From a bacterium (lineage in GTDB: Bacteria > JAMCPX01), in contig JAJYJX010000001.1 in the NCBI GenBank assembly GCA_021789095.1, positions 1 through 34,644 on the forward strand: a stretch of 34,644 nt of DNA, read 5' to 3'. A program made the position numbers and the translations under genes. Shown here piece by piece: positions 5,009 to 34,045 of the stretch. The notes below the pieces were generated by a model. It ran no database searches, was not told the DNA's origin, and saw only the letters and a list, made by a program, of their open reading frames with translations. Position 1 is the first letter of the stretch. Each line of letters starts with the position of its first letter.

Positions 5009-6865
5009 TTATCGTGGTAGTTTGCTTATGATCTGCTTCAGTATGGCAGCGTCTTCTTGATAGGGGTCAAGGTAAAGGCTCATTTCAATGGCTTTTCTTG
5101 CTGCATAAGTGTTGTTTGTATATTTCAAATAAAATTCTCCGAGTAGCCTGTAAAACACGGCATTGTCCTGGTGTGATGCTATTATCTCCTTTAACAAGGA
5201 TATTGCCTTCTCTGTTTTGCCATTATTAGCGTAAAAGTCGGTAAGCTCATCTATAAAATCAAGATTATATGGATCTGTCAGAACACAGGTTCTGAGCTCC
5301 TTCTCATAATCAGTGTAGTCCTTTGTTTTCTGGTAATAAACAGCAAGTAAGTGCCTGTAATTTACGTTGTCAGGCGCATACTTTATAGCCTTTTTAATAT
5401 AGAGAAGTGCCTTGCCATACTCCTTGTTCTGCAAATAGTAAAGACTGAAGCCTGCCAGGATATCCGTATCATATGGATTTAATTTCAACCCTGTCTCAGC
5501 CTGTTTCAGTGCCTCGGGTATTTTGTTGTCAGCGACAAGTGCCCATGCATACATTTTATGACCAAAATAATAATCAGGAAGTTTCTCGGTTACATTTCTC
5601 CAGAGATGCTCGTCGTCTTTCCATACACCTACCCTCTGATAAGCAAGTATACCGAAAACAAGTAAAATAATACCTGCTACTGCGATACCGGGTTTTCTGG
5701 TACTCTGTGTAGTATAAAGGTATTCAAGCCCCATGCCGATCAATACATAAATGCCTATGGATGGCAGGATCAGATTAATATTTGTGAAATTATATACCGG
5801 CAGTATACCAAACCCGGGGATCATGTTTGCAAAATACCATGACATCCAGAAAAAGCCTGAATGATGCTTTCTGTAGAGATGGATCATAAGATATAGGAAT
5901 GCCGCCAGTAGTATAATGCTTATGACAAGCCTTGGCGAGAACAGGTTGTATATTACGGATTGAGGATAGAGGGAAACGAGCTTGAATGGCAGGACGATCC
6001 TGTTCGGGTATCCCAGTATGCCTGAGATGTTTGGTATCAACGAAAGGATATGACTGGAAATGTTTCCACCGGTAAGTCCGTTTTTATTCATGAGTATCTG
6101 TCCGATTAAAAATATAGATACAGATATGGCGGATATTATGTAGAATGGAAGCTGAATAAAAAAGATACTCAAAAAATGTTTTCTGTAAATGTACCATTCC
6201 ATTATCAGGATTATAAGTACAACTGTTGCGGCGGATTGTTTTGTCAGGATTGCACAGAGGAATGCAAGTAAACTTACCGCATAAGACAACCTGCTGCCTT
6301 TCTTTATAAAGGAGTTATATTCAATCAGCGCTACAAGGGCAAAGAAAACGGACTGTGTACTGCCGAGTGCTGAAACCCATGCTGCCGAGTCAACATTTAC
6401 GGGCGCGAGCAGAAATAAGATTGCAGCTATCGCTGCTGTGAACCCCGTTAAAGAACCCTGCTCTTGAACAGTTGGTACCGCCGGTGAATCTGGTTCAGAG
6501 GCTTTCTCCAACGGGGTGAACACTGTTTCGATCCTTTTTACAAAAAGGTAAACGAGCATTGCGTCGGCGATGAATATCAAGGCATTCAATGCGTGAAGCC
6601 ACAAAGGCTTAATGCCCGTTATACTGTAGATCAACATGTAAGTGAACAGGTGGAATGGTCCATAAAATCCGTTGTTATAGTAATGTGTAAAAATGTATCG
6701 TATGTTGTGAAATGTTAACCCCTTTATGGAAGGATCGTTTGTTATAAAAAGACTGTCGCCCCAGCTTAAAAGCGGGAATGATAATACGCGGTGATATATT
6801 ATTATACCCAGTACTGCCAGTATAAAGAGTACCAGTTTGTCATTTATTGTTTGTTTGTTTTCCAT
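5009..6865 (-). CDS. Polytopic GT-C-type (PMT/TMTC/ArnT-like) glycosyltransferase fused to C-terminal TPR repeats, paralog B
   Basis: The N-terminal roughly 400 aa has many hydrophobic helices and a first-loop motif LLSWGDSLFITNDP. The conserved WYFANMIPGFGI segment is shared with the upstream paralog. The C-terminal roughly 200 aa are TPR-like (ALKQAETGLKLNPYD, YIKKAIKYAPDN). Confidence 0.6.
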   Translation of the reverse strand: MENKQTINDKLVLFILAVLGIIIYHRVLSFPLLSWGDSLFITNDPSIKGLTFHNIRYIFTHYYNNGFYGPFHLFTYMLIYSITGIKPLWLHALNALIFIADAMLVYLFVKRIETVFTPLEKASEPDSPAVPTVQEQGSLTGFTAAIAAILFLLAPVNVDSAAWVSALGSTQSVFFALVALIEYNSFIKKGSRLSYAVSLLAFLCAILTKQSAATVVLIILIMEWYIYRKHFLSIFFIQLPFYIISAISVSIFLIGQILMNKNGLTGGNISSHILSLIPNISGILGYPNRIVLPFKLVSLYPQSVIYNLFSPRLVISIILLAAFLYLMIHLYRKHHSGFFWMSWYFANMIPGFGILPVYNFTNINLILPSIGIYVLIGMGLEYLYTTQSTRKPGIAVAGIILLVFGILAYQRVGVWKDDEHLWRNVTEKLPDYYFGHKMYAWALVADNKIPEALKQAETGLKLNPYDTDILAGFSLYYLQNKEYGKALLYIKKAIKYAPDNVNYRHLLAVYYQKTKDYTDYEKELRTCVLTDPYNLDFIDELTDFYANNGKTEKAISLLKEIIASHQDNAVFYRLLGEFYLKYTNNTYAARKAIEMSLYLDPYQEDAAILKQIISKLPR

Positions 6866-8673
6866 GATTCCAGCAACAGTTTGATCTCACCTGCATATTG
6901 TTGTTCAGGTGCAAGTTCAAGGCTTTTTTTAAAGTATTTTATGGCAAGCTGTTGATCATGATAGTACCGTGCTGTTATGTAACCAAGCATGCGCCATGCA
7001 TCAGCGTCAAGCGGTTTCAACGCAACAAGTTTTGCAAGCAGGTTTCTTGCCTCGCTTACCTTGCCTGTCTGTACATAGATATATGCAAGCTTTTCATATG
7101 CCGGAACATAAGGTGCCGCATCAACTGCCTTGATGAGCAGTGCAACGGCCTGATCGATATGATTCTGATTTCCGGCCAGGGTTATCTCTGCCATTTCAAA
7201 GTATATCATCGCCTTTAATGTTGAGGGGGTGTCTCCGAACCCTGGCAAAACAGCTATGTCAGCATGACCTTCTTTTTCGAGCTTGTTGAGCTGGCTTAAA
7301 GCCTCATCAAGCATGGCCTGTGCCCTGGTGTAATCACCTGTGTCTGCATAAGCCTTTGCTATAAAGTATTTCATTGCGACAAAGTCGGGTGTTCTGCTGA
7401 GAAGTTTCCTGCCGTATTCGATACCTTCGTACGGTTCGTTGTTCCTGAGATAAGCGGCTGACAGTGACATAAGAATAGAAGTATCGTCACCAACAGCATG
7501 GAGAGAGCTTGTCCACATGCTTATCTCGTTTTTCCATACAAATTGCCTTTTGAATCCCAGGAACCCGTAAACAAGCAGTATGAGAGCAAGGAACACATAT
7601 GCAATCTTTTTATTATCAATCCTGTTGATAGAAATTACCAGTGTGGTGTACACGCCGATAGAGGCTATGTAGAGATACCAGTTTGCAAAGAACGGCATCG
7701 CGATAATGCCGTAATAAGGCAGCATATTTGCAAAGTACCAGATGATCCAGAATACAAGTAGGAACTCCTTTCTTTTCACCAGTTCTTTAATGCCGATGAT
7801 TATAAAGACCATTATAAGAAGGCTGAGAACGAATCTTGTATTTGAAACTATTGCATCAAGGGGATACGCTATAGAAAGTCTTACAGGAAAAAGCAGCTTT
7901 GAGGGGTATTCGGGCAACCCGGCCATAACTGCAATAACGGTTTTTGTATTTGACCAGAGGCTGTTGCCTATAAGGCCGTGATAAGAACCGATAGTCGCCT
8001 GACCTATCATGAAAATGATCATAAACACCAGAGAGGCTGATGCATAAGGGAGAAGATTAAAGATACTGTTTTTCATTGTCTTGCTGTTGATCAGATCATA
8101 CAGGAACATCATGATTATAAGGGTGGCCCCCGGTGCCTTGACAAGTAACCCGAGAATAAACCCGATGAACGAGCATGCGTAAAGGCTTTTTCTATTCCTG
8201 CTTCTGTACAGCGTATAAAAGTAAAACCCCGACAAAAAGAAAAATAATGACTGCGTGTTTTTCAGTTCCGCTATCCATACCGCCGAATCTATGTTGACGG
8301 GTGATACAAGAAAGAGGAGTGAAGAAAATAATGCCGTGATCCTGTCATGCTGGATCTCATCAACGACCATGTATACCATTACGCCCGACAGTATATGGAA
8401 GATAATCCCGGTCAGGTGGTAAGCCATTGCGTGATAACCCGATATACGGTAAAGGAGCATGTAGGTAAGATACTGAATGGGTGCATATACGCCGTGATGA
8501 AACGAGGTAAAGAAATAGATGATATTGCTCATGGAGAAGTGCCTTATGTACACATTGTCCGTTACATAGAAGTTGTCGTCCAGGTTTACGAACCCGAACC
8601 GCAGTGACGGCAAAAGCATCAGAAATGTTACAACGCTTATAAGTAATATGTCAGGCCATTTTCTTTTTGTCAT
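6844..8673 (-). CDS. Polytopic GT-C-type (PMT/TMTC/ArnT-like) glycosyltransferase fused to C-terminal TPR repeats, paralog A
   Basis: It has the same architecture as 5009-6865. The first-loop motif FVNLDDNFYVTDN matches the F-x-x-DD-x-x-x-I-x-x-N signature I recall for TMTC/DUF1736-type enzymes. It also carries WYFANMLPYYGI and C-terminal TPRs. It overlaps the downstream paralog by 22 nt. Confidence 0.6.
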   Translation of the reverse strand: MTKRKWPDILLISVVTFLMLLPSLRFGFVNLDDNFYVTDNVYIRHFSMSNIIYFFTSFHHGVYAPIQYLTYMLLYRISGYHAMAYHLTGIIFHILSGVMVYMVVDEIQHDRITALFSSLLFLVSPVNIDSAVWIAELKNTQSLFFFLSGFYFYTLYRSRNRKSLYACSFIGFILGLLVKAPGATLIIMMFLYDLINSKTMKNSIFNLLPYASASLVFMIIFMIGQATIGSYHGLIGNSLWSNTKTVIAVMAGLPEYPSKLLFPVRLSIAYPLDAIVSNTRFVLSLLIMVFIIIGIKELVKRKEFLLVFWIIWYFANMLPYYGIIAMPFFANWYLYIASIGVYTTLVISINRIDNKKIAYVFLALILLVYGFLGFKRQFVWKNEISMWTSSLHAVGDDTSILMSLSAAYLRNNEPYEGIEYGRKLLSRTPDFVAMKYFIAKAYADTGDYTRAQAMLDEALSQLNKLEKEGHADIAVLPGFGDTPSTLKAMIYFEMAEITLAGNQNHIDQAVALLIKAVDAAPYVPAYEKLAYIYVQTGKVSEARNLLAKLVALKPLDADAWRMLGYITARYYHDQQLAIKYFKKSLELAPEQQYAGEIKLLLESWKTNKQ

Positions 8674-8806
8674 ACGCGTTGTATAGCATATCGTGCTTGC
8701 CGGATAAAGATAACAAATATTAAAAATACAAAAATGGTTAAAGCTATTGACGAATATAATCCATCAGTATTAAAAATAAAGCCAACAAGAGAGGGAGTTC
8801 CCCTGT

Positions 8807-9169
8807 ATGACGAAAGTCAGGATAATGAAGATTGTAGGGTTTGTTCTCGTCTTTGTGTTTGCAACCAATGCAGCTTTTGCATTCGCAGCAAGTCACCACC
8901 TGACAAATTTCGCCAAAATCCATCATACAAGTAAGAAAAGAGCTTCAAACTTGACCTCTGATGACCCTGATCCAGACAGTGATTTCAAAGCCGCATTTTA
9001 TCCGGTCAGGCATCACATAAAAAGGCAGTATAATTCAATCAGTGCTATGATTACTGTCCCTCCAATACTTGATCCCTTAATCAACGACGGTATCGTTCCA
9101 ATAAAAACATCTCATCCGTCTTTAAACAACCTTTCCGACATCTTCATTCCACCAAAAAACAGAACATAA
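8807..9169 (+). CDS. Hypothetical small secreted protein
   Basis: It has a signal-peptide-like N-terminus (MKIVGFVLVFVFATNAAFAFA), and GGGAG lies about 11 nt upstream of ATG 8807. I recognise no family, and overlapping alternative ORFs exist on both strands. Confidence 0.4.
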   Translation: MTKVRIMKIVGFVLVFVFATNAAFAFAASHHLTNFAKIHHTSKKRASNLTSDDPDPDSDFKAAFYPVRHHIKRQYNSISAMITVPPILDPLINDGIVPIKTSHPSLNNLSDIFIPPKNRT

Positions 9170-9180
9170 TTGTCCGTTTT

Positions 9181-9260
9181 GTCATTCCGTGCTGTGACAC
9201 GGAATCCAGTCTTCTGGTTTTTCGGATTCCTACTTTCACAGAAATGACGCAATTCTGTGA
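9181..9260. repeat. Imperfect palindromic intergenic (REP/MITE-like) element with two hairpins
   Basis: The outer arms are GTCATTCC...GGAATCC (9181-9207) and GGATTCC...GAAATGAC (9224-9248). Hairpin 1 pairs ATTCCGTG (9184-9191) with CACGGAAT (9198-9205). Hairpin 2 pairs TCACAGAA (9236-9243) with TTCTGTGA (9253-9260). Confidence 0.45.
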
Positions 9261-9322
9261 CAAAGCAGCGGAGATCGAAAAAAGGCATTGTAAGAGCGAT
9301 TAACAAAAAGAAGGAATTATAT

Positions 9323-11194
9323 ATGAAGATCAAAAAATTAAATAAGTACGTATGGTTCATCGGGTTGCTGTTGTTATCAGTAACAATGAGTATATCCGGC
9401 ATTGGTTGTAACAGTGGTGGTGGATCGGGCAGTAATTTAGCTAAGAAAAATATAAGCAGAATAGGTGGAGCAGCCAGTAACAACACCGGTAGAAGCAGGA
9501 TTCCTGCAGGCACCCCGGGCAGTGGTTTTTCTGCGACCTGCTACGACAATGGTGAGATCTATGTTGCCAATCAAAGTAGTAATTCCATTACCGTGTATAG
9601 CAGGACAGCCTCAGGAAACGTGGCGCCCCTGCGTACTATATCAGGTACTACCACTGGTCTATATAGACCAGGTGGCATTACAGTAGATACTGTGAACAAT
9701 GAGATCGATATTGTTAATGGTAGTGATAATTATTATAATAATTCCATTACCGTGTATAGCAGAACAGCCTCAGGAAACGTGGCACCCCTGCGTACTATAT
9801 CAGGTACTACCACTGGTCTAAATAGTCCAAATGGTATTGCAGTGGACACTGTTAACAACGAGATCGATGTGGCAAATCACTATGGACCCGTTACTGTTTA
9901 TGCACGAACTGCCTCGGGAAATGTGATGCCGCTGCGTATCTTTTATCCGGGCATATTTTCTTATATGAAATCCTTTTGGGGTATTGCTGTGGATCCTGTT
10001 AACAACGAGATCTATATAACAGATAATGTTAATGGTATGGGAATCCCTTATCAGACTGCCATTATTGTATATCCACGGACAGCCTCAGGAAACGTGGCAC
10101 CCCTGCGTACTATTTCAGGTACTACCACTGGTTTGGATTGGCCATGGGGCATTGCAGTGGATACGGTGAACAATCAGATAGATTGTTCCTCAGCTCAATC
10201 TTCTGCTTCTACAGGCTGTATGCTCGCAGGTGCCGTAGACTGTAATAATGGATATTACTGTCTATCAGGAACAATGTGTGCCCAGTCAGGTGGGCAGACT
10301 ATGTGCTATACTGGCTTTTGTGCAGCAACCTGTTCTGATGGTAGCTGCTGTCCTTCTGGTTATACTTGTGCTCCTAAAGGTGGCTGTATGCCATCAAGTG
10401 CTGTAGACTGTGGTAATGGATATTGCTGTCCATCAGGAGCAACGTGTGCCCAGTCAGGTGGGAAGACGGTGTGTGATAGCGGCACCTGTGGAACAACCTG
10501 TTCTGATGGGAGCTGCTGTCCATCAGGTGATACATGCGCTTCCATAGGTTGCATACCGACAGGCGCTATAGATTGTAGTAATGGATACTACTGTCCATCA
10601 GGAACAACATGTGGACAAGCGATATTTACAAGTGGGCAGACTAAGACTGTATGTAATGGAGGTGCTGGTTCAGTGGCATGTTCGGATGGAACTTACACTT
10701 ACTGTCCATCGGGCGATACGTGTGCTTATGCTGGTGGTTGTATACCATCGGGTACTGTAGACTGTAATAATGGATATTATTGCTCAGCTGGAACAACATG
10801 CAGCCCGACGACAAATGGACAGACGGTATGCAATCCGGTTGCGCCGAGATATTCATGCAGTGGAAGTTCCTGTGTATCCGATCCAAATGGTAGCTATACC
10901 GCCTCTAATTGTAACAACGCTTGCGGCGGAGGAGGTGGCGGTAGTACCTGCTCAAGCGACTCGGATTGTTCAGCTTTTGGGACGAACTGCTGTAGCGGCA
11001 GGAGCAATGCCTTCTGCGAATCCGATCACCTATGCCATTGTTGTGAAGTTCTCTGTGGTGGAGTTAGTGGTAATTGTTACTGTAATCCTTCCTGTTCGAG
11101 TTCATCGGGTTGTCCTACTGTCGGGGATGTCTGCTGGGAAAGTGCATGCACATTCCCTCTGGGCGGTGCTCCAAACAACCTGACTTGCCAATGA
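9323..11194 (+). CDS. Secreted (probably lipoprotein) beta-propeller-repeat protein with a long cysteine-rich repeat tail
   Basis: ATG 9323 follows AAGGAA (9311-9316). The signal sequence MKIKKLNKYVWFIGLLLLSVTMSISGIGC has a lipobox-like SGIGC. There are four NHL/YncE-like blades (ITVYSRTASGNVAPLRTISGTTTGL..GIAVDTVNNEID). These are followed by repeated modules VDCNNGYYCPSGTTC...CSDGSCCPSGDTC. I count about 55 Cys in the last roughly 340 residues. Confidence 0.75.
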   Translation: MKIKKLNKYVWFIGLLLLSVTMSISGIGCNSGGGSGSNLAKKNISRIGGAASNNTGRSRIPAGTPGSGFSATCYDNGEIYVANQSSNSITVYSRTASGNVAPLRTISGTTTGLYRPGGITVDTVNNEIDIVNGSDNYYNNSITVYSRTASGNVAPLRTISGTTTGLNSPNGIAVDTVNNEIDVANHYGPVTVYARTASGNVMPLRIFYPGIFSYMKSFWGIAVDPVNNEIYITDNVNGMGIPYQTAIIVYPRTASGNVAPLRTISGTTTGLDWPWGIAVDTVNNQIDCSSAQSSASTGCMLAGAVDCNNGYYCLSGTMCAQSGGQTMCYTGFCAATCSDGSCCPSGYTCAPKGGCMPSSAVDCGNGYCCPSGATCAQSGGKTVCDSGTCGTTCSDGSCCPSGDTCASIGCIPTGAIDCSNGYYCPSGTTCGQAIFTSGQTKTVCNGGAGSVACSDGTYTYCPSGDTCAYAGGCIPSGTVDCNNGYYCSAGTTCSPTTNGQTVCNPVAPRYSCSGSSCVSDPNGSYTASNCNNACGGGGGGSTCSSDSDCSAFGTNCCSGRSNAFCESDHLCHCCEVLCGGVSGNCYCNPSCSSSSGCPTVGDVCWESACTFPLGGAPNNLTCQ

Positions 11195-19373: not shown

Positions 19374-21632
19374 ATGTTCATGAAGCAGATTCTTTTGTAT
19401 ATAATGCCTTATTCAGATTATGTTCAGAAAGTACTTGCAAACTACAACGGCAGAATAACGGACATTGGTACCCAGATCATGTGGGGAGCTGTTTTGTTTT
19501 TAGCACTGATATTATCTATTTTTCACTTAATACGCAAGAAAAGAGAACCGGCTTCAGAACCAAATGCTCTGTCTCTGGCAATGAAAGCAGGCAGGCTTTC
19601 GAAGATCGGCGACTACCTAAATGCAGCAAAACTCTATGAAAGGTCGGGCAATCTCCAGCTTGCCGCAGATGCATACTATAAGGCAGGAATAGTTTACTAC
19701 GCTGCACAGCTTTACAAGAGGCTCGGTATTAAAGAAAAGCAGGCCTCTGCATTTGAACAGATAGGTTTTCATAAAGAGGCAGGTGAACTGTACAGGGAAT
19801 TGTCTATGTACAAACAGGCAGGGGAGAATCTGTTAAAAGCCGGAGAACTGTTGAAGGCCGCAAATATGCTTGAAACAACAGGGGAGGCAGAAAAGGCTGC
19901 CGATACTTATATGGCTGCAGGGTTCAACCTTCGTGCAGGAGAACTCTATACAAAGCTGGGAGACAAATCCAAGATTGCAGCCGCGTATGAGGCATCGGTT
20001 GTTATTCCGAAAGGGGATACAGTGCCGAGGGCAATAACGAATTATGCTATGAGGGCAATCCCCGCTTATATTGCCGCAGGCAATATGCAAAAAGCAGCAG
20101 AAGTTGCAGAAAGGGCCAGTTTAAAAAAGTATGCAGCAGAACTTTATTGCAAGTTGGAAAACTGGACAAAGGCAAGCGAACTTTACCTTTCGGAAGGTGA
20201 CAAAAAATCAGCAGCGGATGTTATGGAAAAGGCCGGATGGCACGAACAGGCTGCACTTGTGAGGGCATCTTACTATGAAGAAAGCGGCATGAAACGTGAA
20301 GCAATACAGCTATACGAGAAGACGGGCAGGCTGGATGATGCTGCGAGACTTTACGATTCAATAGGCGAGAAGGCAAAAGCAGCAGAGTTATACGCGACGG
20401 CTGGCAAAACCATTGTTTCCGCATCTATATTCAAGGAAATAGGTTACATAGACAAGGCCCTGTCAATCCTGGAATCGGCCGGTGAGGCTGATAAGCAGAC
20501 AGATGAAGCAAGGGTATTAAAGCTTGATCTGCTGATGGAAAAGGGCATGTACAAAGAGGCAAGGTCTATTATTGAACAGATGCTTTCAGGCACTTCTCCG
20601 GCAGCATCGAACATGCATCTCTATTACAGGCTCGGCGGTATATACGAGGAAGAAGGCAAGGCAAAGGACGCAGTGGGTATCTATAATAAGATTGTGAAGC
20701 TTGATCCTGATTACATGGGTGTGAAAGAGCGCATCGAGAGACTGAAGCGTATTACAGAAACAGCGTCTCCGTCTGTTATTGACCAGTATGCCCAGACCGT
20801 ACTTCTTTCCGATAAAGGCGAAGGCATACTTTCAAAGCGCTACAAACTTATTGAGGAACTGGGCAGGGGGGGTATGGGTATAGTTATAAAAGCGCAGGAC
20901 ATAGTTCTTGGAAGGACCGTAGCCATCAAGATCATGTCAACAGGCGGTGCATCGGATCCCAAGCGTATAGATGCCTTTATAAGGGAAGCAAGGACATCGG
21001 CGTCCCTTAATCATCCGAACATTGTAACTGTTTACGATGTAGGCGAAGACAGGGGCGCATTTTACATAGTAATGGAGTTTGTAGAGGGCAAGGTCGTGAA
21101 GAAGTTCCTTGAGGAGTATCATGACGGGATACCGATACAGCTTGCAATATTTATAGCTGTACAGATGCTGAAGGGCTTGGCGTATGCGCATGAGAAGGGT
21201 ATAATCCACAGGGATATAAAGCCGTCGAATATCATGTGGACGCCAAAAAGGGTTGCAAAGCTTATGGATTTCGGCCTGGCAAAGGCGATGGAAGAGATAA
21301 AGCACGGTGAGACCATTGTTGGCGGTACGCCGCTTTACATGTCGCCCGAACAGATACTCGGGGAAAAAACGGATGCAAGGACGGACATATATTCGTTCGG
21401 GTGTACCCTTTATGAATTGCTCACGGGCAAGCCGCCTTTTGCACAGGGAGATATAGGTTATCATCATATTCATACCAATCCACCCCCCCTGGGCGATGTA
21501 AATGCCCAGGTGCCAGGCTGGCTGTCTGATATTACAATAAAATGCCTTAACAAATTGCCACAGCATAGATACCAGTCCGTAGAGCAGTTGTTTAATGACA
21601 TACAGAAGGGCTATAAGGGCATGAAAGGGTAA
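19374..21632 (+). CDS. Membrane-anchored Hanks-type Ser/Thr protein kinase with N-terminal helical-repeat/TPR array (kinase domain C-terminal)
   Basis: It has one TM helix (WGAVLFLALILSIFHLI followed by RKKRE), about 430 aa of A/K/Y/G-rich helical repeats and one clear TPR. The kinase motifs are LGRGGMGIV, VAIKIM, HRDIKPSNIM, DFGLAK and GTPLYMSPEQ. Confidence 0.85.
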   Translation: MFMKQILLYIMPYSDYVQKVLANYNGRITDIGTQIMWGAVLFLALILSIFHLIRKKREPASEPNALSLAMKAGRLSKIGDYLNAAKLYERSGNLQLAADAYYKAGIVYYAAQLYKRLGIKEKQASAFEQIGFHKEAGELYRELSMYKQAGENLLKAGELLKAANMLETTGEAEKAADTYMAAGFNLRAGELYTKLGDKSKIAAAYEASVVIPKGDTVPRAITNYAMRAIPAYIAAGNMQKAAEVAERASLKKYAAELYCKLENWTKASELYLSEGDKKSAADVMEKAGWHEQAALVRASYYEESGMKREAIQLYEKTGRLDDAARLYDSIGEKAKAAELYATAGKTIVSASIFKEIGYIDKALSILESAGEADKQTDEARVLKLDLLMEKGMYKEARSIIEQMLSGTSPAASNMHLYYRLGGIYEEEGKAKDAVGIYNKIVKLDPDYMGVKERIERLKRITETASPSVIDQYAQTVLLSDKGEGILSKRYKLIEELGRGGMGIVIKAQDIVLGRTVAIKIMSTGGASDPKRIDAFIREARTSASLNHPNIVTVYDVGEDRGAFYIVMEFVEGKVVKKFLEEYHDGIPIQLAIFIAVQMLKGLAYAHEKGIIHRDIKPSNIMWTPKRVAKLMDFGLAKAMEEIKHGETIVGGTPLYMSPEQILGEKTDARTDIYSFGCTLYELLTGKPPFAQGDIGYHHIHTNPPPLGDVNAQVPGWLSDITIKCLNKLPQHRYQSVEQLFNDIQKGYKGMKG

Positions 21633-27566: not shown

Positions 27567-28076
27567 CTATAATATCTCCACAGCGCAGATGATGATCATG
27601 ATGATCGCTATGATGCCTTTGAAGATCGTGCCTTTTAACCTTCCTATTGCGGACACCCATCCCTTGTGCAACGCGTCGGCTGCCTTCTTGTTTTCTATTA
27701 TTGACACTGCAAACGCGCCTGCAAAGGCCCCGAGCACGGCACCTATGATCGCGCCTATGCCGAGCAGGAACGGAGCAAGCACAATGGATCCGGCGATCGC
27801 CCCTAGTATGGATGCTGTCATTGCCTTGCGGGAAACGCCCGCTTTTCTTGCGTCCTTTATGCCGAACAGCGTTTCCCCAAGTTCCGCAATAATCGTGAGG
27901 ACCGCGAGCACGATGACGGTATACCAGCCGATGTAGTGCGCCTTTGTCAGCAGGACAAATATTAAGACAGATACAAATTCTATAATGGTCCCGGGCAGAC
28001 CGAACACAATGGAAATGGTTGCAATGCCCATAACAACAAACAGGAGTATAATAAAGAATATATGCAGTGCTGTCAT
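27567..28076 (-). CDS. DUF456-family small membrane protein
   Basis: It has four hydrophobic segments and the pattern GLPGT...ELGE...RKAGVSRKA...G-rich helices that I associate with DUF456. It starts 1 nt after the accD stop. Confidence 0.55.
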   Translation of the reverse strand: MTALHIFFIILLFVVMGIATISIVFGLPGTIIEFVSVLIFVLLTKAHYIGWYTVIVLAVLTIIAELGETLFGIKDARKAGVSRKAMTASILGAIAGSIVLAPFLLGIGAIIGAVLGAFAGAFAVSIIENKKAADALHKGWVSAIGRLKGTIFKGIIAIIMIIICAVEIL

Positions 28077-28077
28077 A

Positions 28078-28923
28078 TTACGAAGCAGTGAGCTTCTTCT
28101 CTGTATTCCCGAGGAGTCTTATGATTTGGGTGATCGTTTTCTTTATCACTTTTCTCTCGATAACCATGTCGATCATGCCGTGCTCGAGCAGGAACTCCGC
28201 GCGCTGGAACCCCTCGGGCAATTTCTGGCCTATGGTATCCGATATGACCCTTGGTCCTGCGAAGCCTATCAAAGCCTTTGGTTCAGCTATTATTATATCA
28301 GCAACACTTGCAAAGCTCGCAGCAACCCCGCCTGTCGTCGGGTCAGTGAGGAGTGCAAGGTACAGGGTCTTGTTCTTCTTAAGCCTGCTTAATGCCGCAT
28401 TTGTTTTTGCCATCTGTACAAGCGAGAAGATGCCTTCCTGCATCCTGGCCCCTCCCGAAGATGTAACGATCAGAAGGTTTGATTCTTCCTGCGCGGCCTT
28501 CTCTATCAGTCTTGTAATCTTTTCACCCACAACGCTGCCCATGCTCCCGCCCATGAAATTGAAGTCGAATATCCCGATATTGATGAACATGTCGTTCAGG
28601 GTTCCGTATCCTGTAACAACAGCGTCGTTTACACCTGCTTGTTTCTGTGCCTCTTTCAGCTTGTCCCTGTATCTTGACCTGTCTTTGAAATCGAGCGGGT
28701 CGATTGACTCGATGTTGTCCCATAATTCATGAAAGGTGTTCTGGTCAATGAGTATATCGATCCATTCCTTTGCAGACATCCTGAAGTGATAGTTGCACTT
28801 CGGACAGACCTTCAGGTTCTTATCGACCTCTTTCTTATAGACGATCTCGCCGCAGTTGTTGCACTTTAACCACAGGCCATCAAGGCTGCTTTTTGTTTTA
28901 CTGTCAGAACCAAACAAGGGCAT
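28078..28923 (-). CDS. accD: Acetyl-CoA carboxylase carboxyltransferase beta subunit
   Basis: It has an N-terminal zinc ribbon (CNNCGEIVYKKE...CPKCNYHFRMSAKEWID) and a carboxyltransferase core (GGSMGSVVGEKI, SGGARMQEG). Confidence 0.92.
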   Translation of the reverse strand: MPLFGSDSKTKSSLDGLWLKCNNCGEIVYKKEVDKNLKVCPKCNYHFRMSAKEWIDILIDQNTFHELWDNIESIDPLDFKDRSRYRDKLKEAQKQAGVNDAVVTGYGTLNDMFINIGIFDFNFMGGSMGSVVGEKITRLIEKAAQEESNLLIVTSSGGARMQEGIFSLVQMAKTNAALSRLKKNKTLYLALLTDPTTGGVAASFASVADIIIAEPKALIGFAGPRVISDTIGQKLPEGFQRAEFLLEHGMIDMVIERKVIKKTITQIIRLLGNTEKKLTAS

Positions 28924-28924
28924 T

Positions 28925-29686
28925 TTATATTTTTATAACCTGGTTAAGCTTTACAGCTTCCATATGCAGGCCTTTCTTCTGCTTCAATTCTTTTACAACC
29001 TGTTTATAGAACTGGGGCTTTATATGGTAGACATAAACAGGGACATTCCTGCTGATCTTGCGTACCTCCTGCGCAACCATCTTAGGCGTCAGATGCTTTG
29101 ACAGGATTGAAAGTTCTTCTTTCTCATCAGGGTATGAACACTCTATGAATACTGCCTTCAGGTTATCTTTCTTTGATGCCATCTCCCAGATCCTGTCTGT
29201 CGGCCCTGTATCAGAACTGAACACCACGCTGCTTTTACCGTCATCCAGTATAACCCCGGATGCCGGTACCGTATGACTGACAAGACACAGCGTAACTTTC
29301 AGGCCGTCGATCTCGATCGTAGATTCACTCTCTGCTTCTTTCATCCTTATGACAGGTTTTTCCTTGCTGGGTATCTCCGTAAAGTCAGGCCAGATGTGCC
29401 AGTTCAACAGGTGTTGTTTTATATGGCTGAGCACAACAGGCATGCCGTATATGGTAAACCCCTTGCCGTTTACGCTGACGCTGTTATCGGCAAGGAACAG
29501 GGTATCCCTGCAGTGGTCAGCATGGGCATGGGTAAGAATGACATGCTCTACCCGGAGCTGTTCTTTTAAGGTGAGCACACCGGTGATCGCACCGCCGTCA
29601 AGTATAACGCTTTTGTTTATAAGGAATGAAGTTGTCCTGAAGTTGGGCAATTCACCGCCGTGACAGCCCAGCACTCTTATATTCAT
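28925..29686 (-). CDS. MBL-fold hydrolase resembling class II 3',5'-cyclic-nucleotide phosphodiesterases
   Basis: MNIRVLGCHGGELPNFRTTSFLINKSVILDGGA and the metal motif THAHADH resemble the class II PDE (CpdP/Pde1-type) layout. It lies 6 nt downstream of a cNMP-binding regulator gene. Confidence 0.55.
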   Translation of the reverse strand: MNIRVLGCHGGELPNFRTTSFLINKSVILDGGAITGVLTLKEQLRVEHVILTHAHADHCRDTLFLADNSVSVNGKGFTIYGMPVVLSHIKQHLLNWHIWPDFTEIPSKEKPVIRMKEAESESTIEIDGLKVTLCLVSHTVPASGVILDDGKSSVVFSSDTGPTDRIWEMASKKDNLKAVFIECSYPDEKEELSILSKHLTPKMVAQEVRKISRNVPVYVYHIKPQFYKQVVKELKQKKGLHMEAVKLNQVIKI

Positions 29687-29692
29687 GGCTCC

Positions 29693-30340
29693 TCACATCC
29701 CCTCGAACTGCTCTTTCATCACAAGGTAATCAAGATATTTTTTCAGGTTGTCATAGTTTCTGATCAATATGCCGTTGTTCGTCAGCTCTATAAGCCTGTT
29801 TTTGGCAAGCCTGTCCACTATCTCGCCCACCTTGTTTTTCTCCAGCCCCGTTGTAATGGCCAATTTCTCAACATCAAGCTTCAGGAAGGTGTCTGTGTCT
29901 ATCTTTGTACCGCTTTCAGCCAGTTTAAGCAGCGTAACGATGACCCTCTGGTTCGAGTCCTTTATCATAAGGTTCGCTATCTGGACATCCGCATCTTCGA
30001 GTCTTTTTGCAAGGATCCTTATTATTCGCAAGGCTATCTCCGAGTTGCTGCGGATCATTGTATCGAATGTACTGTTGTTAATGACGAGCATTTTCGCGTC
30101 TTCCACAACTTCTGCACTTGCGGAACGCGGCTTTTTATTCAGGAGCGACATCTCTCCGAAGAAATCGGACTGGCTGAGCACTGCGAGGACCTTTTCATTG
30201 CCGCCCACTTCTTTGAAAATCTTCACCTTGCCTGTGTTGATGATGTACATGTCTTCCCCTGTATCCCCCTCACGAAAGAGTATCGTGCCTTTTGGGAATA
30301 CCTTGCCAAACCTTTTAAACAGTTCATCTTCCATAAACAC
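29693..30340 (-). CDS. Crp/Fnr-family transcriptional regulator (cNMP-binding domain plus C-terminal HTH)
   Basis: cNMP-binding motifs are FREGDTGEDMYIINTGKVKI and FFGEMSLLNKKPRSASA. The HTH region is LAITTGLEKNKVGEIVDRL. The RBS AAGGGG lies just upstream of the ATG. Confidence 0.85.
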   Translation of the reverse strand: MFMEDELFKRFGKVFPKGTILFREGDTGEDMYIINTGKVKIFKEVGGNEKVLAVLSQSDFFGEMSLLNKKPRSASAEVVEDAKMLVINNSTFDTMIRSNSEIALRIIRILAKRLEDADVQIANLMIKDSNQRVIVTLLKLAESGTKIDTDTFLKLDVEKLAITTGLEKNKVGEIVDRLAKNRLIELTNNGILIRNYDNLKKYLDYLVMKEQFEGM

Positions 30341-30440: not shown

Positions 30441-30536
30441 CTAAAATACTATTACTCCGAGCTTTATAAGCTTGTACAGTCTTTTCATTACTTCAAATTG
30501 CTCAACAGGGTTGATTATCTGCAGGATCTCTTCCAT
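30441..30536 (-). CDS. Possible 31-aa small ORF, or the 3' remnant of a winged-helix-like domain
   Basis: It encodes MEEILQIINPVEQFEVMKRLYKLIKLGVIVF. The same frame stays open upstream to 30647 with domain-like sequence (IPKLNINDRDIVKYNLDKVDGYSS) but no ATG, GTG or TTG. The RBS is poor. Confidence 0.2.
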   Translation of the reverse strand: MEEILQIINPVEQFEVMKRLYKLIKLGVIVF

Positions 30537-30644: not shown

Positions 30645-30693
30645 ATTCTAACACGGGTAAACTTACAGATTACTTACATATTACTTACAGATT
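30645..30693 (-). promoter_or_regulatory. Candidate activator-dependent promoter: three 11-bp direct repeats plus an extended -10
   Basis: The plus strand carries ACTTACAGATT (30661-30671), ACTTACATATT (30672-30682) and ACTTACAGATT (30683-30693). On the minus strand the repeats are followed by 10 nt and then TGtTAGAAT, with TG at 30653-30652 and TAGAAT at 30650-30645. There is no -35 hexamer. Confidence 0.45.
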
Positions 30694-30723: not shown

Positions 30724-33700
30724 TTAATATTTCCTTTGTAAGGAGGTATAGATTTCCCGGGTTTTGGAAGATGGCTCTATACCAAGGTTTTCTTTAAGGT
30801 TCTTATAACATGAATGATATATTGATATTGCCTCTGCATTTTGCCCAATCAGGATATAGCACGCCATCAACCGCTGATAGAATATTTCTTGAAGATGATC
30901 AACCATCAGTCCCTTATTGTAATATTCTATTGCTGCTTTCCACTCTCCATTTGCCTCACAGTACTGTCCCGCTTCTTCCAGTATATTTAAAAGCCTTCTT
31001 TGCAGCCTTTCACGATAATTCTCCGCCCAGGGGTGTGATAATTCTTTACCGAGAAATGTCCCGCGGTAAATGGATAAAATATGACTTATTATACTTGAAA
31101 TCCCATCCTGTACACCATGGGAAGTCCTGATGCCGGATGCAGAATATTTATGTCTTTTTCGTGATCCAGTCCCAGTGTTTACAGGATGATTCTTTAAAAA
31201 TGTTTCAGCTTTATCTAACCAATGCTCAATCGCCCATGTATCCACCCAACAATATCTTTTATCCAGCGTAAGCTTGCCTGCGTTGAATACTATTGCCCTG
31301 TCATTACCGAGTAATTTTCTCAGGCGGTGCAGGTTTGTGTCAAAGGCATGCTTGGCTCTATCACCGTCAGCATCTTCCCATAATGCATCAATTATATGTT
31401 CCTCACTTACGTCTTCTCCGCCGGATGCGAGGAGTACTTGAAGCAGTTCTACGGGTTTTTGGGGGACCTTCCCATTGAATCCTAATTGTTTATCTTCAAT
31501 AAACAGCTTCGGGCTCCCAAGGGTGAAGACTTTCACCGGCCATGGCCAGTCTTTGCATTCCAATGGAGGTGTATCCGGCATAAGATTTCGTTTCTTGATA
31601 AGGCTTTTCACATACTCTTTATTGATGCCAGCCTCAAGTGCTTTGACACACAGCTTGGCCATAGCAGACGGCCGCCAGCCCGGAAAGTTTACATATCCCA
31701 TATCCTGTCCAAGCTGCATTGCCCTGCGGAGAAATCTTAAACCCGATCTTTCGTTATGTTGATCAAATGCAAACAAGGCCTTTGCTATAAGATACATATA
31801 TTTAAAATGCCTCTGCTTCCTGCAGATTCGATATGTTTTGTTGAGGTAGTACAATGCCCTGGTATCTTCTGAAAGTTCGTGGAGGATTTGAGACATTTGC
31901 AGGGAGGTGAGCACTATCAGGTTTACGTCGCCTGTTTCGATAGCCGGTTTCATGCCCGTTTTCTGACTGTCGTATGTAGAAACAAAATCCTCTCTCATCA
32001 TAGCCTCGCCGGTTGAAACAATATAATATAAGGCGCGATCATACGCCCCTGCCTGTCCTATTGTTTTAGAGATCTTTTGTAAAAGCTGCCTTCCATGCTG
32101 GACATTTCCGGAACTCAGCATCCATGCGGCACCAAACGTTAAAAGTGGATGATCCATTACCTGGATTCCCGTGGTTTCAGCTACTTTTATCCCGTCGTAT
32201 AATGCCTTAAATTCAGGATCAGACACTGCCGTATACCAGCTGTATAAAACTTCTATGACCTTGAGTGTAAGAAACGTCAGGGGAGAAATCTGGTCTGAAT
32301 AAGTCAGTTTTCTCAATGGTGCAATGATCGTGTCCTCCATTGAGATATCCCCTACCGTTGAGTAGTAAAGAGCTATAATGGTACTTAATTGTATTCGCAG
32401 CTCAATAGTATCGCTGCTTTCTAAAAGAAGCGTAGCACGATTCAGCCATTTTTTAATCTTTGGATTAAAGTGCTGTCTGAAATTTAAGGCAAAGAGCATC
32501 TTAGCTACTGCTATTTTTTCTATTTCCGTAGAGGGGAAATCCTTCCTTTTTTTTACAAGCTTTTCCATGATATTTATCCATGGATCGTAGAGCCTATAGT
32601 TTCCAAGCCCATAGAATACAGAATCAACAGCCCCTGTCCACGCCATAAATATCCCGTTTTTATCTTTATTTTTTGTGAGCAGCTTGAACGCTTTTGCAAA
32701 GTAAGCGTGGCTTTCTCCGGGATTAAATGGCAATCTGCATGCACCAAACCAGTAGATAAGCCACGGGTTATTTTCACGCAGAGCATCCGGTATTCCCCTG
32801 AGCCATGCCTCCAGCGTCTGGTTCCTGCCCTGGGAAATAAGCTCTTTTGCATGGAGCAGGATCAACCGTATAACCTCCGTCCAGTCCTGCGATTGATAAA
32901 ACAAGGCAACGGCATCTTCTATGTGTCCTTCTTTTTCCAATACCATCCCTGCACGGCGCTGAACCTCCGACAGTGTTTTCCGGCTCCACACATTCATTGC
33001 CCTTGAAATCAGGAACCCCCTGAACAGGTCATGGTATTGATATACAGCTTCTGAACCTGCATGCCGCGATGTAAAGTAGTGCGAATCGGCAAGGTTTTCC
33101 AAGATTCTCTCGGGAGGCGGATATCCCATAAGCTTCTCTATCATGCCTATCGTCATTTTCGGTAAGAATGCGGTTTTCAGAAAAAAGTCCTGCATCTTCG
33201 CATCTACTTGCCTGAATATCTCGGTTGCGAAATAATCAAACACCCCGGGTGTGGAGCGCGGTATAATCGATGGTCCCTCAATATTTTCCAGCCTCGCTCT
33301 CTCCAGCATAAGGATCAATCCCGCTGCCCATCCTTCCGTTTTTGCATGCAGCTGCTTTATGGTGTCTTCCGGTATTTTTTTGAACCCTCTGGCCCGGATC
33401 AGCTTTTTTGATTCCTGCATGGTGAATTTTATATCATCCCACCCGATAAAATGGATCATGTCCTTTGCCAGGAGCCTGCTGAATACGGCGGGCGGATTGA
33501 TTCTGCTTATAATAATGACATTGATCCCGTCTGGAGCTATCGCAAGACCTTCTGCGAGCAACTCATGGAGTTTTGAATCAGGGTGCAGTTCATGGTAGTT
33601 GTCGAATACGATTGTGGATGGATACCTTAACCTGCCGTATAGATTTTCAAAATACCGTCTTGTAAATATAGCAATACCGGACAAGTATTCGGGTGTGAGC

Positions 33701-33996
33701 ATGGGCAGACGATCTTTTTCCCATGGAGCGGCGTTCTTTCCGGCAAGTCCCATGTAATAAAAGAATGTCGCTATATCATCGTCCCCTTTATCCATCTGAT
33801 ACCATAAACACCCGAGTTTCTTTTTCTCTATAAAGCTGCTTACCAGTACGGTCTTGCCTGATCCGGGCGGTGCAGAGACCCATATAATCCGGCGATCCAT
33901 TTTACGGACAAGCAGACGGAACAGTCTGTCCCTGTTTATAATGCCTTTGGGACTCTGCCGTATGATTTTGGATAGATGGCCATCTTTTGATTTCAT
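30724..33996 (-). CDS. STAND-class (MalT-like) P-loop NTPase with helical/TPR-like sensor region and C-terminal SARP module (OmpR-type wHTH plus BTAD)
   Basis: Walker A is SAPPGSGKT and the MalT-like context is LGCLWYQMDKGDDDIATFFYY. The Walker B-like motif is IVFDNYHEL. The C-terminal wHTH is VKVFTLGSPKLFIEDKQLGFNGKVPQKPVELLQVLL...ALWEDADGDRAKHAFDTNLHRLRKLLG. The BTAD is YRGTFLG...EIFYQRLMACYILIGQNAEAISIYHSCYKNLKENLGIEPSSKTREIY. The RBS GGAGG (34002-34006) lies 5 nt upstream of the ATG. Confidence 0.8.
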   Translation of the reverse strand: MKSKDGHLSKIIRQSPKGIINRDRLFRLLVRKMDRRIIWVSAPPGSGKTVLVSSFIEKKKLGCLWYQMDKGDDDIATFFYYMGLAGKNAAPWEKDRLPMLTPEYLSGIAIFTRRYFENLYGRLRYPSTIVFDNYHELHPDSKLHELLAEGLAIAPDGINVIIISRINPPAVFSRLLAKDMIHFIGWDDIKFTMQESKKLIRARGFKKIPEDTIKQLHAKTEGWAAGLILMLERARLENIEGPSIIPRSTPGVFDYFATEIFRQVDAKMQDFFLKTAFLPKMTIGMIEKLMGYPPPERILENLADSHYFTSRHAGSEAVYQYHDLFRGFLISRAMNVWSRKTLSEVQRRAGMVLEKEGHIEDAVALFYQSQDWTEVIRLILLHAKELISQGRNQTLEAWLRGIPDALRENNPWLIYWFGACRLPFNPGESHAYFAKAFKLLTKNKDKNGIFMAWTGAVDSVFYGLGNYRLYDPWINIMEKLVKKRKDFPSTEIEKIAVAKMLFALNFRQHFNPKIKKWLNRATLLLESSDTIELRIQLSTIIALYYSTVGDISMEDTIIAPLRKLTYSDQISPLTFLTLKVIEVLYSWYTAVSDPEFKALYDGIKVAETTGIQVMDHPLLTFGAAWMLSSGNVQHGRQLLQKISKTIGQAGAYDRALYYIVSTGEAMMREDFVSTYDSQKTGMKPAIETGDVNLIVLTSLQMSQILHELSEDTRALYYLNKTYRICRKQRHFKYMYLIAKALFAFDQHNERSGLRFLRRAMQLGQDMGYVNFPGWRPSAMAKLCVKALEAGINKEYVKSLIKKRNLMPDTPPLECKDWPWPVKVFTLGSPKLFIEDKQLGFNGKVPQKPVELLQVLLASGGEDVSEEHIIDALWEDADGDRAKHAFDTNLHRLRKLLGNDRAIVFNAGKLTLDKRYCWVDTWAIEHWLDKAETFLKNHPVNTGTGSRKRHKYSASGIRTSHGVQDGISSIISHILSIYRGTFLGKELSHPWAENYRERLQRRLLNILEEAGQYCEANGEWKAAIEYYNKGLMVDHLQEIFYQRLMACYILIGQNAEAISIYHSCYKNLKENLGIEPSSKTREIYTSLQRKY

Positions 33997-34015: not shown

Positions 34016-34045
34016 AATATAGATTAAAAAAGCCAAATAAGTCAA
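34016..34045 (-). promoter_or_regulatory. Possible sigma70 promoter of the STAND-SARP gene
   Basis: On the minus strand, TTGACT (34045-34040), an 18-nt spacer and TATATT (34021-34016) lie downstream of a CCCGG-AAAG-CCGGG hairpin (34083-34096) that follows apgM. Confidence 0.3.

Follow-up and report, generated by a model that had tools for sequence, protein, structure and literature searches.

Several described regulators come close to the protein considered here, the 1090-residue product of a gene at positions 30724..33996 (minus strand) of a 34,644-nucleotide stretch of bacterial DNA (contig JAJYJX010000001.1; the whole stretch is referred to as the window). MalT, the activator of the maltose regulon in E. 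coli and a member of the MalT clade (LAL regulators), has a nucleotide-binding NOD followed by a helical repeat sensor and a C-terminal DNA-binding effector of the LuxR type, and is known to form multimers, dependent on ATP and inducer, that bind direct repeats arranged in arrays (PMC6468293). The AfsR-type large SARPs of Streptomyces combine a STAND NTPase and a sensor of helical repeats with a SARP module, and the SARP-LAL regulators (PimR, SanG, FilR) join a SARP module to an ATP-binding half resembling that of LAL/MalT proteins. According to a 2024 review, SARPs are exclusive to actinobacteria and carry the SARP module at the N-terminus only (PMC10972967), and a 2026 preprint describes the large SARPs likewise (10.64898/2026.09.02.748808). 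In STAND proteins in general, the effector may occupy either end and the switch alternates between an ADP-bound closed and an ATP-bound open form (PMC6468293). The window protein begins with a MalT-type switch and ends with a SARP module, and its gene is followed by three phased boxes of the kind bound by SARPs. It is likely to be a cytoplasmic one-component STAND-class transcription activator that works through these boxes.

The layout of SARP operators is well described. The repeats overlap the -35 element and end about 8 nucleotides (nt) before the -10 (PMC11301090), and the 11-bp unit sets the SARP monomers on one face of the DNA, where at least two monomers bind cooperatively (PMC5930380). 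The main operator of PimR comprises three heptamers with 4-nt spacers, and its sole target is another regulator gene (PMC5930380, PMC3367932), while afsS has been described as a target of AfsR (PMC11301090).

The regulator gene is an uninterrupted ATG-to-stop open reading frame (ORF) with its stop codon at 30724-30726, and was divided into the following parts (aa, amino acids).

30724..33996, minus strand: STAND-SARP regulator gene, 1090 aa (ORF listing, full-length colinear homologs, AlphaFold model)
32758..33954, minus strand: MalT-type NOD (NBD-HD-WHD), residues 15-413 (PRK04841, phmmer to 8BOB, Foldseek 8bob_C)
33850-33876, minus strand: Walker A, G45-x-G47-K48-T (alignment, MalT match)
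33586-33612, minus strand: Walker B, IVFD132-N133 (alignment, MalT match)
33010-33042, minus strand: WHD motif, YQYH322D (alignment, MalT match)
31561..32757, minus strand: all-helical arm and repeat sensor, residues about 414-812 (weak TPR_MalT, AlphaFold, Foldseek)
31243..31548, minus strand: OmpR/SARP-type winged helix-turn-helix (HTH), residues about 817-918 (Trans_reg_C, conserved residues, model, AfsR/EmbR superposition)
30727..31242, minus strand: BTAD helical bundle, residues 919-1090 (Pfam BTAD, AfsR model, Foldseek)

The order NTPase, sensor, winged HTH and BTAD had been proposed in a first-pass annotation, which quoted the motifs SAPPGSGKT (residues 41-49), LGCLWYQMDKGDDD (residues 61-74) and IVFDNYHEL (residues 129-137); the motifs are present and the order was confirmed by Pfam, NCBIfam, phmmer, an AlphaFold model and Foldseek. 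The Pfam search suggested there found both ends of the protein as expected, with P-loop signatures at residues 32-80, a Trans_reg_C match of 28.5 bits (cutoff 26.2) at 846-899 and a BTAD match with E 1.9e-19 at 961-1086. The protein thus has an OmpR-type winged HTH directly before BTAD, as SARPs do, and this module lies at residues 817-1090 of 1090 in a non-actinobacterial host, outside the published SARP class. The MalT model PRK04841 of NCBIfam aligned residues 15-413 with model positions 12-411 (E 6e-52); its score of 176.7 is far under the MalT equivalog cutoff of 537, so that the NOD is MalT-like and the protein is not a MalT ortholog, and no GerE/LuxR-type HTH was detected in it with Pfam. 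The AfsR model covered residues 844-1082 only (42 bits, cutoff 1430), NB-ARC (PF00931) was not detected by Pfam, and the domain order SARP, NB-ARC, TPR of AfsR-type large SARPs is not that of the window protein. The match to TPR_MalT was weak (residues 626-765, E 0.005, under the cutoff); this domain is precomputed on most homologs, and PF25873 (WHD_MalT) on homolog P0001. When searched with phmmer against PDB sequences, the protein matched MalT (8BOB, E 9e-26 over residues 20-410) and AfsR (8HVR) and nothing else.

The AlphaFold2 model, built from 36 sequences, had a mean pLDDT (predicted local distance difference test score) of 86, with low confidence only at residues 1-7, 242-249 and 941-960. 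The model shows an alpha/beta NTPase, helices without interruption over residues 323 to ~803, a winged helix at 821-918 (beta-sheet, three helices, beta-hairpin) and a helical bundle after it. The N-terminal beta-sheet of the winged helix starts from the invariant WPW817-819, the recognition helix spans 878-896 (..LHRLRKLLG) and the wing 902-918 (CWVD). Foldseek against the PDB ranked the MalT NOD (8bob_C) first and the STAND-TPR protein 6mfv second, followed by the AfsR SARP (8hvr and 8k60; template modelling (TM) score 0.67-0.68, normalised to the target) and EmbR; TPR/SUPR proteins were also among the matches. The notion of MalT-like signal logic with a SARP-type DNA-binding output held in every domain and structure test, with added support from the SARP-type geometry of the operator; the helical-repeat sensor is also real, at ~470 aa (arm and sensor, residues about 340-810) instead of the ~600 supposed. 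A basic, Ser/Gly-rich linker (..NHPVNTGTGSRKRHKYSASGIRTSHGVQDG.., residues 937-960, nt about 31117-31188) separates the wing from the first long BTAD helix; its pLDDT is <50 at 941-960, and the linker is longer than in most homologs and varies across the family.

The switch residues were read from an alignment of the window protein with 35 homologs. G45, G47, K48, D132, R165 (the sensor-1 Arg) and H322 were invariant in 36/36 sequences, as was GW222-223 of the motif GWAAGL (residues 222-227), and the nucleotide-switch residues are under purifying selection. H322 sits in the motif YH(P/D)LF, the counterpart of the plant 'MHD' and the AfsR 'F/Y-HD' motifs; in AfsR, exchanging HD for GV renders the protein autoactive (10.64898/2026.09.02.748808). 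The residues align one-to-one with those of MalT (phmmer, 8BOB) except for the second acidic residue of Walker B, where MalT has LVIDDYH and the regulator family FDNYQ/H; at this position Asn was found in 32/36 sequences, Ser in 2, Gly in 1 and Asp in 1. Judged by sequence, therefore, the protein carries the Walker A and Walker B motifs of a MalT-clade STAND with a D-to-N deviation at the second acid, and it possesses the NOD core with a conserved WHD histidine and the repeat sensor behind it that mark this clade. By analogy to P-loop NTPases of other kinds, Asn133 should slow ATP hydrolysis yet preserve nucleotide binding, and the near-universal change from Asp-Asp to Asp-Asn suggests a slow hydrolysis and hence a long-lived ON state. 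The C-terminal module retains the SARP signatures WPW817-819, LW873, HRLR890-893, CWVD916-919, LYxGxFL and the C-terminal LGIEPSxxT, and W873, R891, L892, R893, W917 and D919 are invariant in its winged-helix part.

Set beside MalT, the NOD is homologous over its whole length (SPAGYGKT in MalT and APPGSGKT in the regulator, GWATAL and GWAAGL, YHPLF and YHDLF), and the helical repeat sensor after the NOD and the C-terminal DNA-binding effector are common to both. Unlike MalT, the regulator has an OmpR-type winged HTH with BTAD as its effector and D-N for D-D in Walker B, and stands outside any mal-gene context. With AfsR it shares the three parts, a SARP module that superposes, and 11-bp phased repeats over the -35 at a fixed short distance from the -10 (PMC11301090); unlike AfsR, its SARP module is C-terminal, its NTPase belongs to the MalT clade and not to NB-ARC, and the hosts are Gram-negative and not Actinobacteria. 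The SARP-LALs differ in having the SARP module N-terminal, in being actinobacterial and in lying within biosynthetic gene clusters. Of two further proteins, PH0952 (Pyrococcus horikoshii STAND, 6MFV) matches over NOD, arm and TPR sensor but carries a DNA-binding domain of the ArsR type at its N-terminus, and EmbR (M. tuberculosis, 2FEZ) matches over winged HTH and BTAD but has an FHA domain and no NTPase.

A predicted operator and promoter were found behind the gene.

30661..30693, minus strand: predicted operator, three direct TGTAAGT heptamers (sequence, Tandem Repeats Finder (TRF), shuffles, homolog loci)
30645..30650, minus strand: predicted -10 hexamer TAGAAT, 10 nt past the last heptamer (sequence, fixed spacing across loci)
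34016..34045, minus strand: the regulator's own sigma-70-like promoter, TTGACT-18-TATATT (promoter scan, 10/12 match)

The operator begins 31 nt past the stop codon and reads, on the minus strand, cTGTAAGTaat aTGTAAGTaat cTGTAAGT, then ttacccgtgt and TAGAAT. The heptamers (30683-30689, 30672-30678 and 30661-30667) are separated by 4-nt spacers and so keep an exact 11-nt phase, a heptamer and spacer making one helical turn, which is the classical layout of SARP operators (PMC11301090, PMC5930380). No -35 element is present and the boxes fill its position, so that by its sequence the element has the form of a SARP operator, with 11-bp heptamer repeats over the -35 that end shortly before the -10. 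TRF gave the array a period of 11, 3.0 copies and a score of 59, the best short-period array in the window, and when the window was shuffled 300 times with dinucleotides preserved, no exact 7-mer triple at period 11 occurred. It was the only period-11 triple in the 201 kb that the window and the homolog loci make up. TRF, which detects near-perfect repeats only, found no further period-11 arrays in the homolog loci, and a strict triple scan of 17 homolog loci returned the window array alone; perfect three-box arrays are therefore not universal, and two boxes are the norm. Within the window no convincing further copies were found, the best being matches of 12/14 at position 91, within tig, and of 11/14 at 8638. 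The regulator's own promoter is free of TGTAAGT boxes, and the window thus gives no sign of autoregulation.

The boxes recur beside relatives of the regulator. In the two closest homologs with flanks available, TGTAAGT-N4-TGTAAGT was found at 14/14 in L001 (homolog P0002) and L050 (P0007), the chance expectation of such a match in 200 kb being estimated at about 1e-3, and TAGGAT or TACCAT follows exactly 10 nt past the boxes. These boxes precede orthologous HTH_11 proteins of 177-181 aa that are 54% mutually identical; neighbours of 176-184 aa in L047 and L049, considered as counterparts, proved not to be homologous to them. Contig L046 matches the window at 100% identity throughout the intergenic region, and it contributes no conservation signal. 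A motif-only metagenome scan for TGTAAGTRATCTGTAAGT yielded 66 loci (328 kb), of which 11 encode a relative of the regulator beside the motif, in at least 5 independent sequence groups; the boxes lie 30-200 nt past the stop of this relative on the same strand, as in the window, and at 100-200 nt in L086, L108, L069, L070, L060 and L115. Among unique contexts, TA stood at +11/+12 past the last heptamer in 21/51, against a mean of ~4 at other offsets, a clear fixed-distance -10 signal. Promoters carry two to four boxes, and the same spacing between boxes and -10 was found in L001, L050, L003, L012, L117 and L121.

More distant loci (Nitrospira, Burkholderiales, Deltaproteobacteria) have related phased boxes (CCGTGAG, CTGTGAC, TTGTAGY) with the same geometry. 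Upstream of a small gene they read atCCGTGAGccatCCGTGAGT-N10-TATATT in L003 (Nitrospira), atCTGTGACcgatCTGTGACt-N10-TAAACA in L012, atTTGTAGCcaatCCGTAGGc-N10-TAACCT in L011, and atTTGTAGTcaatCTGTACC in L007, with TAAGCT about 10 nt downstream. Two metagenome contigs contain long tandem arrays (at least 10-20 copies) of 11-mers identical or close to the operator unit, CTGTAAGTAAT at L079:53-301 and CTGTAAGTCAC over the whole of L074. A 111-aa ORF without significant Pfam match, 79% identical between L049:5603-5938 (minus strand) and L050:9410-9745 (minus strand), is convergent to P0004 and P0007, the closest homologs, and lies directly downstream of them; the window has no such ORF.

The small gene is the predicted usual target of the family. 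In L069, L070/L097, L073, L086, L091 and L108, an ORF of 57-80 aa begins 41-77 nt past the boxes, and its product starts with M(E/D)xY(I/V)(I/V)R(I/V)YRR (for example MENYIVRIYRR..., about 60 aa). A hidden Markov model (HMM) of the small protein matched directly downstream of STAND-SARP genes in L003, L004, L005, L014 and L040; the small gene lies upstream of the STAND-SARP gene in L007 and L011 and divergent from it in L012, and the regulators of these loci are only 28-38% identical to the window protein. In a reverse test, four unrelated small-protein matches on long contigs were taken as the starting point. A long MalT-type STAND-SARP was found upstream on the same strand in L117 and L118, a stand-alone 282-aa SARP 176 nt upstream in L121 and a BTAD gene 5 kb away in L119, and L117, L119 and L121 have TGTAAGT/TGTAAGC boxes with the 10-nt gap. 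The small proteins measure 56-93 aa, with the consensus MENYIVRIYRRD..DP...AG.VE.VE......F....EL..IL., and number at least 339, all annotated as hypothetical; no relatives were found in Pfam, NCBIfam or the PDB. Their model is confident, with three strands and a helix (pLDDT 78). The following small-protein genes are unannotated.

L086:1363-1557
L108:1633-
L003:7270-
L004:7432-
L014:5249-
L117:6001-6186
L121:6001-6219

In most family members the predicted target is a tiny-protein gene directly 3' of the regulator, as in afsR-afsS, and the window has no such gene. The likeness of a regulator, boxes and tiny gene in a row to afsR-afsS is an analogy of gene position and size, supported by the account of afsS as a target of AfsR (PMC11301090).

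In the window the box promoter points at a different set of genes.

27567..30334, minus strand: candidate target operon (Pfam, gene calls on the identical contig L046)
29693-30334, minus strand: Crp-family regulator binding cyclic nucleotide monophosphates (cNMP) (Pfam)
28925-29686, minus strand: class-II-like cyclic-nucleotide phosphodiesterase of the metallo-beta-lactamase (MBL) fold (Pfam)
28078-28923, minus strand: accD (Pfam)
27567-28076, minus strand: DUF456 (Pfam)

The genes are separated by gaps of 1-6 nt. The promoter scan of the regulator's strand found neither a consensus sigma-70 promoter for crp nor a terminator after the regulator, and on the simplest reading the box promoter would drive inducible expression of the crp operon. 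The about 300-320 nt past the boxes hold only ORFs of 29 and 31 aa, and the leader had no Rfam match and a fold z-score of +0.41, that is, an ordinary fold; a riboswitch or structured leader was set aside on these two results. A degenerate small gene in the ~320-nt gap (..DIVKYNLDKVDGYSSMEEILQII.., 31-aa ORF at 30441-30536) was likewise rejected for want of support, the HMM giving no match at maximum sensitivity. The operon itself is unusual, since acetyl-CoA carboxylase is linked in it with proteins that sense and degrade cyclic nucleotides. A weak precomputed match joins the phosphodiesterase to the Anti-Pycsar protein Apyc1, and Pycsar effectors have cNMP domains similar to the one encoded here, which is probably generic domain similarity. 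In the sub-clade of the window the circuit would control other regulators (Crp, and HTH_11 in L001 and L050), recalling the control of pimM by PimR (PMC5930380): the three boxes of the window point at a Crp-family regulator as the three heptamers of PimR serve a regulator gene. The PimR operator lies upstream of the -35 (class I), whereas that of the window replaces it.

The anatomy, the conserved switch residues, the boxes with their geometry and their recurrence beside regulators are established by computation, while DNA binding, activation, oligomerisation and the identity of the target operon are predictions. The following mechanism is proposed by extension from MalT, from STAND switches in general and from the structures of AfsR. 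At rest the NOD would hold ADP, clamped by His322, and the helical sensor would autoinhibit the protein. On binding of a ligand to the sensor, the NOD would open, ATP would replace ADP and the protein would multimerise, which would align the C-terminal SARP modules (winged helix and BTAD) in a head-to-tail array able to bind two to four TGTAAGT boxes cooperatively. Because the heptamers are spaced by one helical turn (11 bp), the SARP modules should come to lie on one face of the DNA. The boxes would stand in for the -35, and the bound modules would recruit and position RNA polymerase, as AfsR does, through contacts made by BTAD; Asn133 may prolong the ATP state. In the window the promoter behind the regulator would serve the operon of the crp-like, cNMP-phosphodiesterase, accD and DUF456 genes, and in most relatives the equivalent promoter would drive the conserved small protein of about 60 aa. 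The neighbourhood gives no clear hint to the ligand of the sensor.

A broader reading, to which the evidence inclines by a little, is that these proteins form a family of non-actinobacterial SARPs (~2,900 clusters, from Gram-negative and Nitrospirota lineages) that couple a MalT-clade STAND switch to a C-terminal SARP module. They would recognise one operator across phyla, atC-YGTRRGY, repeated at 11-bp phase and placed 10 nt before the -10. Their ancestral job would be to switch on the ~60-aa MENYIVRIYRR... protein encoded right behind the regulator, and in the window the small protein would have been lost and the circuit rewired onto a cyclic-nucleotide (Crp/phosphodiesterase) operon.

Several points weigh against the proposed mechanism. 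Neither the window nor its closest relatives have the small-protein gene, the predicted usual target of the family; run with filters off, the HMM had no match in the window, L001, L049 or L050 at E <= 10. The first long ORF lies ~310 nt past the boxes in the window, compared with 40-130 nt elsewhere, and at this distance the target could be a short unannotated transcript or peptide and not the crp operon. No obvious adjacent boxes were seen in the homolog loci L006, L009, L020, L038 and L049. The Trans_reg_C score barely exceeds its cutoff, stand-alone SARPs of the same clade (L060, L121) could bind the same boxes, and the consequence of the Walker B Asn, like all family function, is a matter of prediction.

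The last-named proteins suggest the strongest alternative, that the TGTAAGT boxes are the operator of another SARP, for instance a stand-alone paralog elsewhere in the genome, and that adjacency to the regulator is a legacy of synteny. Stand-alone SARPs of 282-285 aa adjoin TGTAAGT boxes in L060/L115, L105 and L121, and the family shows almost no variation in the recognition helix, so that paralogs may share boxes. This explanation is nevertheless judged unlikely, since the 34.6-kb window encodes no second SARP and the long STAND-SARP form adjoins boxes in at least 8 independent sequence groups. The stand-alone proteins (Trans_reg_C and BTAD, ~282-285 aa) are encoded at

L060:2045-2903, minus strand
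L121:4977-5825, plus strand
L105:1233-1623, plus strand

on metagenome contigs of Gram-negative type, have the same boxes and are 33-46% identical to the C-terminal module of the window protein (tblastn); the SARP module therefore exists both free and fused to a MalT-type switch.

Binding of the regulator to the boxes as a repressor or roadblock, for example to limit read-through from its own gene, would suit their position directly 3' of the ORF with no terminator between, and a few SARPs have been reported as repressors (Table 3 of PMC10972967). The fixed 10-nt distance to a -10-like hexamer without a -35 is, however, the layout of an activator-dependent SARP promoter (PMC11301090), and BTAD is an activation module, which makes repression slightly less credible still than a foreign operator and leaves activation through the boxes preferred.

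A role in anti-phage defence or conflict, as a STAND/NLR-like (Avs-like) protein with the winged HTH and BTAD as effector or sensor of foreign DNA, is very improbable. STAND NTPases that carry repeat sensors are frequent among defence proteins, Foldseek lists Avs4 at a low rank, and Pycsar and anti-Pycsar proteins have domains in common with the products of the neighbouring cNMP-binding and phosphodiesterase genes; but PADLOC gave no Avs/NLR match and only a weak TPR match over the SARP part, and the housekeeping neighbours, the MalT-clade NOD and the conserved operator-promoter architecture with its target genes speak otherwise. The protein fits no defence STAND model of PADLOC and does not lie in a defence-island context. 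Finally, although some relatives are called as two genes from frameshifts (L117, L118), an artefactual ORF arising from a chimeric assembly or from fused malT-like and SARP genes is excluded for practical purposes by the identical ORF on an independent ENA contig (L046) and the colinearity of 35 full-length homologs, and also disagrees with the 2,876 representatives that contain the junction region and with a model that is continuous and confident across it.

The first-pass annotation had implied that the architecture is rare, which does not hold. With the fusion-specific C-terminal 341 aa as the query against 1.84 billion cluster representatives, 2,876 representatives (50% identity clusters) were found at E <= 1e-30, and the match was C-terminal in all of the best 150; a first homology search had given at least 2,136 significant matches. 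The best 120 homologs are 1,030-1,150 aa long and 38-49% identical, with BTAD, WHD_MalT and usually TPR_MalT, and the labels that pipelines already give them are 'BTAD domain-containing putative transcriptional regulator' and 'MalT / DNA-binding SARP family transcriptional activator'. In species-representative genomes, a sample and not a census, full-length relatives among the matches listed came from Nitrospira, Candidatus Sulfobium, Deltaproteobacteria, Deferrisomatales, Burkholderiales, Betaproteobacteria, Gammaproteobacteria, Muproteobacteria and, at 22% identity, Anaerolinea. Some 2,900 clusters formed at 50% identity carry the fusion; they belong to Desulfobacterota, Nitrospirota, Burkholderiales and Gammaproteobacteria. 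On plasmids of cultured bacteria, one near-full-length relative was found (Neorhizobium petrolearium), the remaining matches being ordinary MalT/LuxR proteins aligned over the N-terminal half only. The family tends to several copies per genome, and two paralogous STAND-SARP genes (L001:1831-5100 and 6001-9204) flank the box-driven HTH_11 gene of L001. Since the fusion is widespread and pipelines have labelled it already, it is less surprising than first suggested, and as every part is known, including STAND effectors at either end, the regulator is not categorically new. A full-text literature search found no study of this architecture or of Gram-negative BTAD regulators, and an earlier, purely bioinformatic mention is possible. 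What appears to be new is an operator-promoter-target model for a family whose hosts and order of domains both set it apart from the SARP classes published so far.

Elsewhere the window has the content of an ordinary chromosome, with tig-clpP-clpX-lon, obg-proB-proA-nadD-rlmH, TPR proteins, a TPR-Ser/Thr kinase and glycosyltransferases, and no biosynthetic cluster or defence island was found in it. Two further features were recorded.

10214-10613, within the ORF at 9257-11194, plus strand: 168-nt tandem repeat, 2.4 copies, 79% matches
19374-21632, plus strand: 752-aa protein with N-terminal TPR and C-terminal Ser/Thr kinase

The host ORF of the repeat encodes a 645-aa NHL-repeat protein, in which the repeat apparently encodes a Cys- and Gly-rich module. 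AfsR is controlled by Ser/Thr kinases; the kinase gene of the window is 9 kb from the regulator, and nothing links the two genes.

The combination of NTPase, sensor and SARP is absent from the SARP classes distinguished so far (small, medium, large and SARP-LAL), all of which are actinobacterial with N-terminal modules, and anaerobes and nitrifiers of environmental importance have it in abundance. Through the analysis, what was an anonymous 'BTAD domain-containing protein' becomes a circuit open to testing, for which an operator, the geometry of its promoter, a target and mutants that should be autoactivating or dead (H322/D323, K48) are predicted. Confirmation would offer a general way into thousands of orphan regulators, a natural experiment on the activation of RNA polymerase by SARP modules from the opposite end of the STAND scaffold and a new small-protein family for study. 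Should the broader reading be true, the family would represent an independent, inverted counterpart of the AfsR-AfsS module.

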